A program made the position numbers and the translations under genes. Below are positions 50,137 through 56,294 of a DNA stretch of 64,000 nt, piece after piece; within the stretch, counting starts at the first letter, position 1, and every line of letters begins with the position of its first letter. Under the pieces are notes generated by a model that did not search any database, was not told where the DNA came from, and saw nothing but the letters and a program-made list of their open reading frames with translations. The stretch spans positions 192,001-256,000 of the forward strand of contig CM000429.1 in NCBI GenBank assembly GCA_000165345.1, in the 5' to 3' direction.

Positions 50137-51594
50137 TCACACTGGAGGGTTAAGCAAACTTCTCCTCCAAGAGACAAAAATATCGGGATAAATGTTGTAG
50201 GTTCGCGCCCAAGCAACATTCTTATTGCTCTCGTAATCTCTTTTTCCTTCCTCATATTCTGTTTCTACTTCGTATTCCGTGGTTATTTCTTCTTCACTTT
50301 CTAAGGTACTTGAGACAGAAGTGTCAATATTAGCACAAATAGTTGTAGTATTGCATGAAGGAGCAGTAGTTGAGGCACTTGTATAGCTAATAGCATAAGA
50401 GTAATAATTTGGGTCTATATTAGCTTGGGAGTGAACTTCAAGCTTGCTTGTAATGCTGCTTCCACTGTTGCTATTGGAGCTGTTACCACTGTTATTGTAA
50501 TCTTTGATTGGCTTAAAAGGCTTAAACCCATCGTTTTTATTAGAGCCAGTTAAGTTCAAATTCTCAAGTTCTAGAGTTTTATTACAAGAATCCAAGCAAA
50601 ATTGTTCCACCCTTTCAGGCTTGAAGAACTTGTCATAAGAATCTAAGCCGTTTATAAGCTCTAAATAATGCCCAAAAAGAAACTGAGTTACTTTTGGTTT
50701 GACGGAAAAATCTATTTTATTTCCATATATGATGTACGAAGGAACTCCTTTAGGGAAAAAAGATTGAATTACTTGAAAAGCTTCCCCTTGTCTCTCCTCA
50801 GCATCACAGAGAGACATAAGTGGGAATTGTTTGGCCTCAAGAGATAAAACAATGTAAGGTTTCATCTTTGTCCAATCTAAAGAAATATGACAAAATGGAC
50901 ACTCAGCCCTACATTTATCCCAAATATCATTTTTTGCTGCCCAATATTCTACATGTAAAGCCTTTCTTAGACAATGGTAGCAACTTACGTGTTTGCATAC
51001 CTTAAATCTGGCCTTTGTACTTCTTGGTTTAAACTGATTACAAGAAAAGCAGAAAAAATGTCTTGGCCTCTTATTACCACTATTACAATTATTATTATTA
51101 TTATTGTTATTAATAGCACTAATATTTCCATTAATACTTTTAGTAAATCCATTTCCAGCTAACTCACACTCTTCTTCTATGTTACTAACAATATTTCCGT
51201 CATAGTGATTCTCTCCAAAGTAAGTGAATTTATTGGAAGTATTAATTGGATTCTGCTCAAATTCAGATTTTTTGTTTTGAATCATACCATAATTGTTATT
51301 GATCCATTCTGGTATTAGTGAATAAACTGTAGCAGTAATATTACCACCAATATTATTGATATGAAGCTCATCAACCTCAAATCTATCTGCAACAGAATCT
51401 TGAGCATTATTGGTATTTATATCGCTTTTTGCAGCTTTATAATTAAATGAATGAACTGAATTATATTGTTTCAAATTATTATTTGTGGTAAAGCTTTGCG
51501 AAAATTGTGTACCCTTTGAGTTATTTAATGCCGAAGATAATCCATTTCTTGGGTACGAAGGATATTTCGGTTTTTTTGGAATATAATAATTCAT
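50137..51594 (-). CDS. N/S-rich protein with a C3HC4 RING-type zinc finger; paralog of the 53793 gene.
   Basis: The RING is CFSCNQFKPRSTKARFKVCKHVSCYHCLRKAL...CRAECPFCHISLDW. It is preceded by a poly-Asn run and followed by low-complexity S/N-rich sequence. Confidence 0.75.
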   Translation of the reverse strand: MNYYIPKKPKYPSYPRNGLSSALNNSKGTQFSQSFTTNNNLKQYNSVHSFNYKAAKSDINTNNAQDSVADRFEVDELHINNIGGNITATVYSLIPEWINNNYGMIQNKKSEFEQNPINTSNKFTYFGENHYDGNIVSNIEEECELAGNGFTKSINGNISAINNNNNNNNCNSGNKRPRHFFCFSCNQFKPRSTKARFKVCKHVSCYHCLRKALHVEYWAAKNDIWDKCRAECPFCHISLDWTKMKPYIVLSLEAKQFPLMSLCDAEERQGEAFQVIQSFFPKGVPSYIIYGNKIDFSVKPKVTQFLFGHYLELINGLDSYDKFFKPERVEQFCLDSCNKTLELENLNLTGSNKNDGFKPFKPIKDYNNSGNSSNSNSGSSITSKLEVHSQANIDPNYYSYAISYTSASTTAPSCNTTTICANIDTSVSSTLESEEEITTEYEVETEYEEGKRDYESNKNVAWARTYNIYPDIFVSWRRSLLNPPV

Positions 51595-53792: not shown

Positions 53793-56294
53793 ATGAATTT
53801 ACAAGGACATAAACGTGGGTTATCATCTCAAAATAAGATAAATAGTTATCACTATTTAAATGGGAAGAAGAATACAATAGCAAATATCTTGTCCAACACT
53901 ACGACTACAAATAATAATTATGGTCTTGTTAATAATGTAGTGAATCAAGATGATAATCGTTTTAAGCCATTAAACAATAATTCTTCAAAGTCGATGGGGA
54001 TTTCTCCTTCCACTACAGCAAAGATGAAATACCATATGGAAGAAAATGAAAATAATAAATCGTCGTTTGGGCTATTTCAACAAGTATCAAGTACAAATTT
54101 AAGTCGTTCTCAAAATAATGTGAGTATAATGAAACAAAATGAAGGATTAAATGGGGGGGGAGTTAATAATTCGAGTACAGGAAATAGTTTATCCAATAAT
54201 CCAAGTATTTCCAATGAACTCAAAGACAAGCCACAATTATCAGGGTTAAATAATTGCAATAGTGGGATACAATCTAATAATAATAACGATTCTAAAAAAA
54301 AGAGGTCAAGAGTAATTTATTGTCATGTTTGTTGTCAATATAAACCAAGATCAACCAGGGCTAGATTTCAAGTATGCCAACATATTGCATGCTATGATTG
54401 TGTCAGACTTGCATTAATGATTCAGCAGAGATATAATGTTAAGGCTCATTGCCCATTTTGCCAAATAGAGTTGGATTGGAATAGGGTTAAGCCTTTTATT
54501 GTCTTATTTAAGCCAAAATCAGAAGCTATTATTGAAGAAGATACTAACAAAACTTTGGCGGATTCAAAACAAGAAACAAATTTGGGAATAGGTTTTAATA
54601 ATAATAATAATTCGATTGGAATGGCTACTAATAGTAATGGTGCAAATAATGCAGTTGTTAATAATAATAGTACGCAAAATGAATCAAATGATTATAATGT
54701 CAATTCTCAAATGATTTCAAATGACTTAATTGCTCAAGCTTTTGAAAGTAATGGAATTTCCAAGGAAAAAATATTAAAAGGATTCTTTTCATGTTATTTG
54801 CAAAAACAAACGCATTTAAGAAATAATGGGTGTATTCTCCAGAATAACAATAATAATAATAATAATAATAATAGTAATAATAATGGTTGCGTTCCTCAAA
54901 ACATATTATATGACTCCAAAGAATTACAAAATACACACACAAACTATTCTAATACACTTGAATCATATAAGATGGCTGGCTCGATTTGCTATGGAGGAGT
55001 TAACAATAAACAGTATATTCCTCTTAAAAATTTTGCTGATCAAAGTATTCTTGTATTACCTAATCTTCAAAATTCTTCTGAGTCATGTGGAGAATTTTTA
55101 CCTGATGTAGGATTGGCGCCAGTTGGGGAAACTTTACCGTTGACAAATTGCATGCACCAAATTGTGGGCACCAAGGAATTTAATCCTTACATTTATGGCG
55201 GGAACTTTAATTCAACAATTTCTAATAATGGTGCTGGAAATAATACCATTGCTCAAAATACAAATATAAGCACTTTTATAAGTGATAATAATCAAATTAA
55301 TTATAGTAGCAGTGGCTGCAATGTTGATTTAAATAATAGTAACAGTAATATTATTAATAGTAGTAATAGTAGTAATAGTAGTAATAGTAGTATTAGTAGT
55401 AGTAGTAGTAGTAGTAGTAGTAGTAGTAGTATTAATAGCAACAACAGCATTTGTGGTAATATAAGTTACAGTGGCAGTACTACTACAACCATGAGAAACA
55501 GTTGCATTGGTATGAGAAATAATAACGTTGCAGGAACGAGGGTTGTTCATGGATCTAATTGCAATTGTACAGGCTGTTTAAAACAAGGAGGAAGAATGGG
55601 AATAACAACATCAATGGGTTTGGGAATGACTCCACCGGGAAGTATATTGAGTACGATTTATGATGAAAATAATCCTCGTGGATTTGTATGTGGTTTGTTT
55701 AATCCATCAATTCCAACAGATGGTGTGGCATTGGTGCATCAAGGTAAGTCAAATAAAAGTCAGCATATTCATTTTGAGCTTCAGAAACAGTTTATGTCTG
55801 ACAGTTTGAATAATTATTCTATTGGCCAAAATGATGGAGCAAGCACTGGTAGAATTAGTAATGGTATTAATACTAATAATAATACAACAAATAATCATTT
55901 TATTCAGCAGCAAAATAATCATTGTACTTCTCAAAGCCAAAGCCAAAGCCATTGTCAAATACCATATTCATTATCAACTTACGGAAATAGCTGTGGAGTT
56001 TCAAGTACTGGCAATAGTACTTTCAATAATATAAATATTGGGAATACTCTATTAAATTGTGATGAAAGTATACCAAATTCATTAACAACATCATATGGAT
56101 TATATAATAATGAAAATATTCGTTTAAGTACTGGAGTATCAGAGATATTTGGATTCTTTGAAACAAGTGAAGATAAGCAAATGCCAAATTGGATGATTAC
56201 AACACCTTATTTAAATATGAAAGATATATTGAGTGATTGGAGGAACTCAACATTATTAAAGACCCATTCTGATATGGTCATATGTTCTATTTAA
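53793..56294 (+). CDS. N/S-rich protein with a C3HC4 RING-type zinc finger; paralog of the 50137 gene.
   Basis: The RING is CHVCCQYKPRSTRARFQVCQHIACYDCVRLAL...HCPFCQIELDW. It is collinear with the 50137 protein across ~70 aa (KPRST[KR]ARF[KQ]VC[KQ]H..CY.C.R.AL...CPFC.I.LDW...KP.IVL). It contains long poly-N, poly-S and poly-Q tracts. Confidence 0.75.
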   Translation: MNLQGHKRGLSSQNKINSYHYLNGKKNTIANILSNTTTTNNNYGLVNNVVNQDDNRFKPLNNNSSKSMGISPSTTAKMKYHMEENENNKSSFGLFQQVSSTNLSRSQNNVSIMKQNEGLNGGGVNNSSTGNSLSNNPSISNELKDKPQLSGLNNCNSGIQSNNNNDSKKKRSRVIYCHVCCQYKPRSTRARFQVCQHIACYDCVRLALMIQQRYNVKAHCPFCQIELDWNRVKPFIVLFKPKSEAIIEEDTNKTLADSKQETNLGIGFNNNNNSIGMATNSNGANNAVVNNNSTQNESNDYNVNSQMISNDLIAQAFESNGISKEKILKGFFSCYLQKQTHLRNNGCILQNNNNNNNNNNSNNNGCVPQNILYDSKELQNTHTNYSNTLESYKMAGSICYGGVNNKQYIPLKNFADQSILVLPNLQNSSESCGEFLPDVGLAPVGETLPLTNCMHQIVGTKEFNPYIYGGNFNSTISNNGAGNNTIAQNTNISTFISDNNQINYSSSGCNVDLNNSNSNIINSSNSSNSSNSSISSSSSSSSSSSSINSNNSICGNISYSGSTTTTMRNSCIGMRNNNVAGTRVVHGSNCNCTGCLKQGGRMGITTSMGLGMTPPGSILSTIYDENNPRGFVCGLFNPSIPTDGVALVHQGKSNKSQHIHFELQKQFMSDSLNNYSIGQNDGASTGRISNGINTNNNTTNNHFIQQQNNHCTSQSQSQSHCQIPYSLSTYGNSCGVSSTGNSTFNNINIGNTLLNCDESIPNSLTTSYGLYNNENIRLSTGVSEIFGFFETSEDKQMPNWMITTPYLNMKDILSDWRNSTLLKTHSDMVICSI
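55341..55436 (+). repeat. (AGT)n / (AAT-AGT)n coding trinucleotide microsatellite, giving a poly-Ser/Asn run in the RING paralog. A second (AAT)n lies at ~54841-54880.
   Basis: agtagtaatagtagtaatagtagtaatagtagtattagtagtagtagtagtagtagtagtagtagtagt... encodes SSNSSNSSNSSISSSSSSSSSSSS. Confidence 0.85.

Follow-up and report, generated by a model that had tools for sequence, protein, structure and literature searches.

Two head-to-head RING-finger genes on chromosome 1 of Cryptosporidium parvum

We analysed a window of 64,000 nucleotides from chromosome 1 of Cryptosporidium parvum (GenBank assembly GCA_000165345.1, contig CM000429.1, forward-strand positions 192,001 to 256,000), in which the G+C content is about 30%, genes are dense and introns are nearly absent. 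The analysis centres on two head-to-head open reading frames (ORFs), a minus-strand ORF of 485 amino acids at 50137-51594 (gene A) and a plus-strand ORF of 833 amino acids at 53793-56294 (gene B), and on the divergent spacer between them (Table 1; all positions are those of the window). The two genes share a RING-type finger and are an old duplicate pair, probably with separate promoter regions, and a conserved element lies upstream of gene B. The two head-to-head ORFs had been described correctly in a sequence-only reading, an earlier interpretation of the bare DNA whose other claims are taken up below.

The product of gene A is identical to EAK88484.1 (CPATCC_000325), and the 833-residue model of gene B is present in assembly GCA_031892065.1. 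The minus-strand gene at 57453-59309 encodes the ABCE1 / RNase L inhibitor-like protein of C. parvum, published as cgd1_980, and the transhydrogenase gene at 60086-63529 is cgd1_990. A supplementary expression table lists cgd1_950 (ankyrin repeat), cgd1_960, cgd1_970 and cgd1_980 in this gene order. Based on this order relative to cgd1_980 and cgd1_990, gene A corresponds to cgd1_960 and gene B to cgd1_970, both of which are already annotated in the table as "RING finger containing protein". In the library of papers that we searched, cgd1_960 and cgd1_970 were found in supplementary expression tables only and are not discussed in the papers' text, and the text does not mention CPATCC_000324/325, EAK88484, cubi_00094 or cand_031610. 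In a 2008 survey of apicomplexan ubiquitin-pathway genes, the two genes were not among the groups common with Plasmodium or Toxoplasma.

Table 1. Features of the cgd1_960/cgd1_970 locus in window coordinates.
Feature	Position	Strand	Remarks
Gene A, cgd1_960 (EAK88484.1 / CPATCC_000325)	50137..51594	-	485-amino-acid ORF; exact protein match; orthologues in 9 Cryptosporidium species
C-terminal motif of A, YPDIFVSWRRSLL	50152..50190	-	invariant Y, P, D, F, W, R
Helix with invariant FFP.GVP, amino acids 271-285 of A	50740..50784	-	part of a compact predicted RING-plus-helices domain; invariant columns
RING (C3HC4) block of A, amino acids 175-250, KRPRHFFCFSCNQFKPRSTKARFKVCKHVSCYHCLRKAL...CPFCHISLDWTKMKPYIVL	50845..51072	-	
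Divergent spacer	51595..53792	.	2198 bp, 76.4% AT; length kept at 1770-2380 bp in nine species
Island I, candidate A promoter module	52134..52296	-	E2F-like CCGCCAA 52167-52173, TTGGCGCC 52245-52252, G-box TCCCCACA 52287-52294; 540-700 bp upstream of A ATG
Island II, mid-spacer	52607..52712	.	GCATGT, TGCAATGCCGGTATAG (TACCGG box), GTGCAC; kept in C. parvum, chipmunk genotype I, C. canis group
Island III, candidate B promoter module	53164..53240	+	AP2_1 sites TGCATGCA at 53180 and 53221, ATGTGGATAA, GCACAC
Island IV	53366..53526	+	267-427 bp upstream of B ATG; cores TTTGCAT.A, ATGTA.TTGTCT, CACACACGCTTTGTCTT, TGATGTTCGTTATACAGTAATTAGAGG
Candidate RNA stem-loop inside island IV	53440..53526	+ (B sense)	about 87 nt, 23 pairs
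Gene B, cgd1_970	53793..56294	+	833-amino-acid ORF; orthologues out to C. andersoni
RING (C3HC4) block of B, amino acids 170-238, KRSRVIYCHVCCQYKPRSTRARFQVCQHIACYDCVRLAL...CPFCQIELDWNRVKPFIVL	54300..54506	+	near-invariant genus-wide
C-terminal motif of B, LNMKDILSDWRNSTLL	56211..56258	+	followed by the conserved ...DMVICSI end

Sequence and predicted fold of the shared RING block

The products of genes A and B gave one significant match in BLASTP (46% identity over 97 amino acids, E 8e-26). When we compared the profiles of the two orthologue families, the same block was recovered at 99.7% probability, and no other region was aligned, which confirms the shared block of the sequence-only reading. 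The C3HC4 pattern claimed for this block also held up. The zinc ligands are spaced C-x2-C-x14-C-x-H-x2-C-x2-C-x16/23-C-x2-C and form a complete C3HC4 set, consisting of C182, C185, C200, H202, C205, C208, C232 and C235 in A and of C177, C180, C195, H197, C200, C203, C220 and C223 in B. Both proteins fit the RING criterion that we used, C-x2-C-x(9-39)-C-x(1-3)-H-x(2-3)-C-x2-C-x(4-48)-C-x2-C, and all eight ligands are invariant among the block sequences aligned, one outgroup included. The loop between the second and third cysteines is the invariant basic stretch KPRST[KR]ARF, and an invariant DW.[KR].KP.IVL segment follows the RING. The consensus first written for the block was right in its pattern and had one dot too many in this segment, the correct form being LDW.[KR].KP.

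In an AlphaFold2 model of the A block together with the next 75 residues, the predicted local distance difference test score (pLDDT) was 79 and the predicted template modelling score was 0.77. Since the pLDDT values stay at 74-93 through residue 120 of this model, the RING and the helical extension of A are predicted to form one domain, in which residues 81-120, the region of the FFP.GVP helix, reach 84-93. The full-length model of A has a mean pLDDT of 31. The predicted block shows the cross-brace arrangement of RING domains, and nearly all matches in predicted-fold searches were RING/U-box domains of E3 ubiquitin ligases (E3s).

The sequence-only reading could not place the block in a named family, and this stands: no Pfam RING-clan model scored above its gathering score (best zf-RING_5, E 7e-4). 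Below threshold, zf-RING_5 matched in 14/14 block sequences scanned, and zf-RING_2, zf-C3HC4 and zf-MIZ were also found. A sequence-profile search of the PDB gave chance matches only, to a tRNA methyltransferase. All the same, the ligands and the predicted fold identify the shared block as a divergent C3HC4 RING-type finger, and E3 ubiquitin (or ubiquitin-like) ligase activity is probable for both proteins on the basis of this fold.

Age of the duplication and distribution of the family

Homologues were gathered with the full-length proteins; a word-index search with the two-sequence block alignment gave no candidates. In these protein searches, both genes had orthologues in C. hominis, chipmunk genotype I, C. 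canis, C. felis, C. bovis and one further species. The search with A added C. meleagridis, C. ryanae and C. andersoni, and the search with B added C. ubiquitum and C. xiaoi. We then compared the whole locus in nine species (C. parvum, C. andersoni, C. bovis, C. ryanae, C. felis, C. canis, C. ubiquitum, chipmunk genotype I and one more).

First, the gene order was transhydrogenase, ABCE1, B, spacer, A and ankyrin gene in all nine species, with B and A head to head and the spacer 1770-2380 bp long. The C. andersoni gene at the B position encodes 405 amino acids, and its RING block is a few residues off that of C. parvum B. Second, the RING block is about 90-100% identical within each paralogue genus-wide, compared with 46% between the paralogues. 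A recent duplication would leave the copies closer to each other than to their orthologues and would be missing from outgroup species, and neither was found. Since both genes and their arrangement are present in every species, including C. andersoni, the duplication is older than the last common ancestor of the sampled genus. These comparisons place it before the radiation of the genus and not in a recent local event.

The family is narrow. We searched 1.84 billion (1.84e9) protein cluster representatives exhaustively with a HMMER profile of the block and obtained 12 matches at E <=1e-3, namely four A-type sequences, four B-type sequences, P0037 (B-type, near C. andersoni) and P0038-P0040. A fourth relative from outside Cryptosporidium, P0036, came from an earlier full-length search with B. 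Since no generic RING protein was significant among the 1.84e9 representatives, neither A nor B has another paralogue in the C. parvum proteome.

Whether they are also closest relatives across lineages is less certain. In a neighbour-joining tree of the block, A was monophyletic in 200/200 bootstraps and B in 184/200, and A plus B formed a clade in just 57/200, while the outgroup P0036 joined A in 141/200. Because P0036 joins A, the A/B split itself may be older than the genus. P0036 lies on a 2.8-kb contig (run SRR23076771) adjoining an RNA polymerase subunit gene, and this contig carries no head-to-head paralogue.

Conservation beyond the RING block

The sequence-only reading regarded the two proteins as otherwise unrelated, which was too strong. 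The FFP.GVP motif of A is also present in the outgroups P0036, P0038 and P0039, and by eye an [IV][IL]xxFF helix follows the RING in A and B alike and in the same order. In addition, the C-termini of both proteins have the form W-x(n)-[YL]-x-x-x-D-[IL]-[FL]-x-x-W-R-x-S and were aligned in register by hhalign (P 6.4e-4), over 25 columns and with a probability of just 28%. The RING, the FF helix and the C-terminal motif keep the same order in the relatives from outside Cryptosporidium. The paralogy of A and B thus probably extends beyond the RING block, and the second, C-terminal motif in both families suggests duplication of the whole gene.

These results bear on the earlier proposal that a recent local inverted duplication put the RING module alone into two unrelated low-complexity proteins. 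The genes are indeed adjacent, inverted paralogues, and the RING block is the sole region found in BLASTP and in the full-length profile-profile comparison. However, the genes and their arrangement occur in 9/9 species including C. andersoni, the block differs far more between A and B than within either paralogue, and the C-terminal motif and the FF helix share one order in A, B and the outgroups. We therefore retain the inverted duplication, consider a recent, module-only event highly improbable and prefer an old duplication of the whole gene.

Asparagine and serine (N/S) make up 31% of B and 23% of A against a background of 17%, so that the label N/S-rich suits B and applies mildly to A. The length of B is 833 amino acids in the window and in GCA_031892065.1, 831 in GCA_048859185.1 and 818 in C. 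hominis, differences that probably reflect slippage in N and S homopolymer runs. Logan contigs with gene A are genomic, and all end at a fixed point within the N/S repeats of gene B. B also has invariant blocks of its own out to C. andersoni, RGF[AV]CGLFNPSIPTDG (55677-55724, amino acids 629-644) and the C-terminal ...DMVICSI (56274-56291). The latter is not a CaaX box, because its cysteine is at position -3.

Motif layout and proposed promoter organization of the divergent spacer

No other divergent gap in the window is as long as the spacer. The remaining ones measure 395-1181 bp, giving ratios of 1.9-5.6x and about 2.6x for a typical gap of about 850 bp; its unusual length had thus been noted rightly, while the stated excess of three to four times was overstated. 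A longer ORF-free gap at 28219-30979 (2761 bp) contains visible minus-strand multi-exon (spliced) coding segments. In that gap, ATACCGGTAT palindromes stand beside GCATGC at 28391-28401, 28473 and 29580-29602. The AT content of the spacer had been put at about 80%; the measured 76.4% falls inside the 67-85% of the other gaps, and a centromere or replication origin in the spacer was dropped because an AT content of 76% is unexceptional. No ORF of at least 60 amino acids was found in the spacer except one low-complexity ORF of 65 amino acids, and no ORF is conserved between species. The spacer contains no detected tRNA, and Rfam 15 gave no match over 51400-54000 at gathering score or at E <=5. 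Most of the nine-spacer alignment is unalignable beyond the closest species.

GCATGC and CCGGTAT boxes were said to lie at both ends of the spacer. GCATGC is present only at 53180 and 53221, the site at 52614 reads GCATGT, and CCGGTAT occurs once, at 52642-52648, so that the boxes occupy the middle and the right part, where they belong to islands II and III. They are not special to the spacer either, as the same motifs are enriched throughout the window (observed versus expected counts: GCATGC 38 vs 5.0, TACCGG 21 vs 3.4, TTGGCGSS 13 vs 0.6). They belong to published promoter families of C. parvum, in which the upstream motifs comprise AP2_1 (BGCATGCAH), bound by the ApiAP2 protein cgd2_3490, E2F-like (DTTGSCGCCH), G-box (DTGTGGGG) and AP2_2 (GCACAC) (PMC3734150), and related upstream motifs are carried by long non-coding RNAs (lncRNAs) of this species (PMC7840661). 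GCATGC and the other spacer motifs fit the consensus sequences of these families (PMC3734150, PMC7840661) and are enriched in the intergenic DNA of the window, while TACCGG/ATACCGGTAT has a loose likeness only to 'motif 4' of PMC7840661.

The motifs of the spacer form two clusters about 930 bp apart, each about 570-650 bp from its own gene. On the A side, an E2F-like site is found 480-960 bp upstream of the A ATG in 9/9 species and the TCCCCACA k-mer in 8/9 spacers. The part of island I at 52134-52224, which coincides with the E2F region of A, is 88-93% identical among five intestinal species and partly alignable to C. felis. On the B side, 8/9 species have GCATGC at a distance of 250-320 bp upstream of island IV. 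In an RNA-seq table of 28 samples, both genes were expressed and their levels were uncorrelated (Spearman 0.26, p 0.17). Because the motif clusters are separate, the layout is conserved and expression is uncorrelated, we suggest that the two genes have unshared promoter-plus-leader modules. The spacer would thus consist of two separate conventional promoter modules, with putative transcription start sites downstream of each and about 1 kb of weakly conserved AT-rich DNA between them.

Several further observations concern motifs in and around the spacer. The other divergent gaps of the window with lengths of 708-1181 bp have one central GCATGC/E2F/TACCGG cluster about 450-550 bp from both start codons, which suggests that shared promoter regions and rather long leaders are the local norm for divergent pairs. 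A (GCAT)n run at 49927-49944 places four overlapping GCATGC in the 243-bp convergent (3'-3') gap between cgd1_950 and cgd1_960, an unexpected position for a promoter-type motif. Within the 350 bp upstream of the A ATG (51595-51945), the 5'-splice-site-like sequence AGGT[AT] (often AAAGGTA[AT]) has 3-9 copies in 9/9 species, where about 0-1.7 are expected from the rest of each spacer. This cluster is almost wholly in the A sense, with two antisense copies in nine species, and a similar sense-strand cluster is located upstream of the gene at 35978-39976(-) in C. parvum. A scan of the spacer for bacterial-type promoters and terminators, which is irrelevant in a eukaryote, showed no enrichment (25 promoter-like sites vs 20.9 in shuffles); its two terminator-like matches are the E2F palindrome and a GCATGC site.

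A conserved non-coding element upstream of cgd1_970

Island IV stands out from the rest of the spacer. Over 127 columns, the intestinal species are 88-94% identical to C. parvum in this island, C. felis and C. bovis 73%, C. ryanae 69% and C. andersoni 54%, whereas identity at the 4-fold sites of the adjoining ABCE1 gene is 11% in C. felis, 45% in C. bovis and 40% in C. andersoni. This indicates that island IV is under purifying selection and is constrained beyond saturated neutral sites. When 24 kb were compared with C. bovis and C. felis, no other conserved non-coding segment emerged except a probable extension of an adjacent gene and a single weak match of low identity at an unrelated position; the tRNA matched against C. 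andersoni only. Island IV occurs once in the window and as a whole matches no described C. parvum motif family.

We considered whether the island is conserved as a regulatory peptide encoded by an upstream ORF (uORF; MPLIEHTALSGYDVRYTVIRG..., 53462-53587). An ATG-initiated ORF is present here in seven species, and several changes in its D-V-R-Y-T-V-I part are synonymous or conservative. However, C. felis (AAGCCC) and C. andersoni lack the ATG, and the ORF is shortened to 19 codons in C. bovis. Moreover, the 60 nt 5' of the ATG are equally conserved and contain a frame-breaking indel, and the mismatches show no 3-nt periodicity in the island. Neither the start codon nor the frame nor the peptide is thus kept as in a conserved peptide uORF, which makes this explanation very unlikely, and the pattern of substitutions indicates that island IV is non-coding.

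The candidate stem-loop in the island may point to function at the RNA level. Its cells were paired at 90.8% versus 35-57% in slid controls, and compensatory pairs numbered 4 versus 1.1 in shuffles. With seven species, alifold gave -16.5 kcal/mol, a structure conservation index of 0.77 and a z score of -4.9 in the B sense versus -2.6 on the other strand; adding C. felis and C. andersoni weakened the fold to just -3.4 kcal/mol for nine species. The fold has decayed in C. felis and is missing from C. andersoni, and the z scores of single-sequence folds range from -4.2 (C. ubiquitum) to +1.8 (C. andersoni). The consensus structure was derived from and tested on one alignment. Taken together, these data lend moderate support to an RNA-level element in the putative leader of B. 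A perfect hairpin, TCTTCAGT/ACTGAAGA (53442-53462), was set aside as specific to C. parvum and not kept in other species, and C/D-box and H/ACA small nucleolar RNA readings were dropped because box order and spacing misfit and Rfam gave no match.

Two other explanations of the island have to be weighed here. Since island IV holds CACACAC/GCACAC, which resembles AP2_2, a DNA-level cis-regulatory module, that is, a cluster of transcription-factor sites or the core promoter of cgd1_970, is a serious alternative. It would also account for the resemblance of TTTGCAT to a CAAT-box-like motif, for the position of the island 150-300 bp downstream of GCATGC sites in most species, and for the sequence cores that remain in C. 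felis and C. andersoni though the RNA fold is weak or absent there. On the other hand, invariant runs extend over 17-27 nt, more than a factor site usually covers, and the pairing statistics are better for one strand, the fold being strand-specific through its G-U pairs, so that we judge such a module to be somewhat unlikely, if quite conceivable. An independent non-coding RNA gene hidden in the spacer, either a small RNA at island IV or a long intergenic non-coding RNA (lincRNA) from the TACCGG/GTGCAC island II, seems less probable still and is, in our estimate, quite unlikely. The spacer exceeds two ordinary half-spacers by about 1 kb, island II has promoter-type motifs without an adjoining gene, the stem-loop of island IV is conserved, and lincRNAs with the same upstream motifs have been described in C. 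parvum (PMC7840661). Nevertheless, there was no Rfam match at E <=5 and, by eye, no C/D or H/ACA box arrangement, and 14-15-mers from islands I, II, IV and one further mid-spacer site were absent from part of the lncRNA FASTA of PMC7840661, which is a weak test.

We tentatively propose that island IV acts within the 5' leader of cgd1_970 as a structured cis-regulatory RNA that is kept in most of the genus, although we hold this specific form of the proposal to be doubtful. A 2025 review of gene regulation in Cryptosporidium states that even uORFs have not been reported in the genus (PMC12246861), so a structured leader element would apparently be new for Cryptosporidium. If the proposal is true, island IV would be a control point for the translation or stability of cgd1_970, possibly exerted by the paralogous pair itself, and the two proteins, both with invariant basic loops, could form a heterodimeric E3.

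Proposed history and organization of the pair

Based on these observations, we suggest the following explanation, which we consider probable as a whole. An ancestral gene would have encoded a RING with the basic KPRST[KR]ARF loop, a helical extension with the FF motif and a C-terminal D-x-[FL]-x-x-W-R. The whole gene would have been duplicated and inverted before the last common ancestor of the genus, after which the copies may have diverged mainly through low-complexity N/S-rich linkers while each RING stayed near-frozen. The proteins would recruit a ubiquitin-conjugating enzyme (E2) via the RING and act as E3 ligases, as their predicted fold implies. The spacer would be 2.2 kb long because A and B share no promoter, A being driven by the E2F/G-box module about 540-700 bp from its ATG and B by the AP2_1 (GCATGC) module about 570-610 bp from its ATG, with about 930 bp of poorly conserved AT-rich DNA between the modules. 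The element of about 160 nt 3' of the B module most likely belongs to the B 5' leader and may be at least partly an RNA stem-loop, perhaps for control of translation or stability.

Here, we need to consider the points that speak against this explanation. First, the Pfam matches of the block are all below threshold, its Foldseek E-values are weak (0.4 or higher), and E3 activity is deduced from the fold only. Second, the synteny of the whole neighbourhood is kept across the genus, so that retention of the head-to-head arrangement carries no special weight. Third, the grouping of P0036 with A means that A and B are perhaps not closest relatives across lineages, and the C-terminal alignment is short and of low probability. 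Fourth, the nearest motif lies about 570 bp from the ATG, a distance close to the maximum for other genes in the window but not beyond it. Finally, the positions of the start sites and the placing of island IV in the leader are guesses, and the stem-loop loses its support in the nine-species fold, decays in C. felis and C. andersoni and was evaluated on the alignment from which it was derived.

Other features of the window

Elsewhere in the window, a tRNA-Lys (UUU) gene at 41159-41232(+) is 97.6% identical to the copy at the syntenic C. andersoni locus. The span 41817-42410, which takes in about 450 bp upstream of the ORF at 42269-42844, the A20/AN1 zinc-finger gene, aligned with C. bovis at 62% identity, so that this gene may have a further, unlisted exon upstream or a longer coding sequence.

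Comparison with known systems

That both genes are annotated, expressed and members of the RING-finger superfamily was already known, and the pair itself is ordinary. What is new is that they belong to a small subfamily under strong constraint, centred on Cryptosporidium and with invariant features of its own, that they appear to derive from an old whole-gene inverted duplication, that their long spacer can be explained by two promoter modules, and that one non-coding element upstream of B is unusually constrained. The restricted distribution and the near-frozen RING suggest a ubiquitin-ligase module that is specific to the lineage and probably essential, in a pathogen for which drug targets are few. 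The island of about 160 nt is non-coding yet deeply conserved, which is rare, and post-transcriptional control is little described in this genus.

The nearest solved folds of canonical C3HC4 RING E3 ligases (zf-C3HC4, zf-RING_2, zf-RING_5) are the RING of RNF25/AO7, the SP-RING of NSE2 and RING1 of RNF144A and HOIL-1. Compared with these, the block of cgd1_960 and cgd1_970 has sub-threshold Pfam scores, the invariant basic KPRST[KR]ARF loop and the DW.[KR].KP.IVL segment; the A-type RING has a packed helical extension in the predicted model, and the family is restricted to Cryptosporidium and four other sequences.

The spacer resembles the bidirectional (shared) promoters of head-to-head pairs in its divergent orientation. 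In contrast to such promoters, it spans 2.2 kb, its two motif clusters are 930 bp apart and the genes are not co-expressed. The pair would neatly illustrate how adjacent genes can each have a promoter type of their own (E2F/G-box and AP2_1), which sets it apart from the divergent pairs nearby with their shared central clusters.

Paralogous RING proteins are known to form heterodimers, as in BRCA1-BARD1, RING1B-BMI1, RNF20-RNF40 and MDM2-MDMX. In these systems, as in cgd1_960 and cgd1_970, two diverged RING paralogues have been kept together over long evolutionary time. The expression of the two C. parvum genes is uncorrelated, and the likeness to the heterodimeric pairs may serve as a lead.

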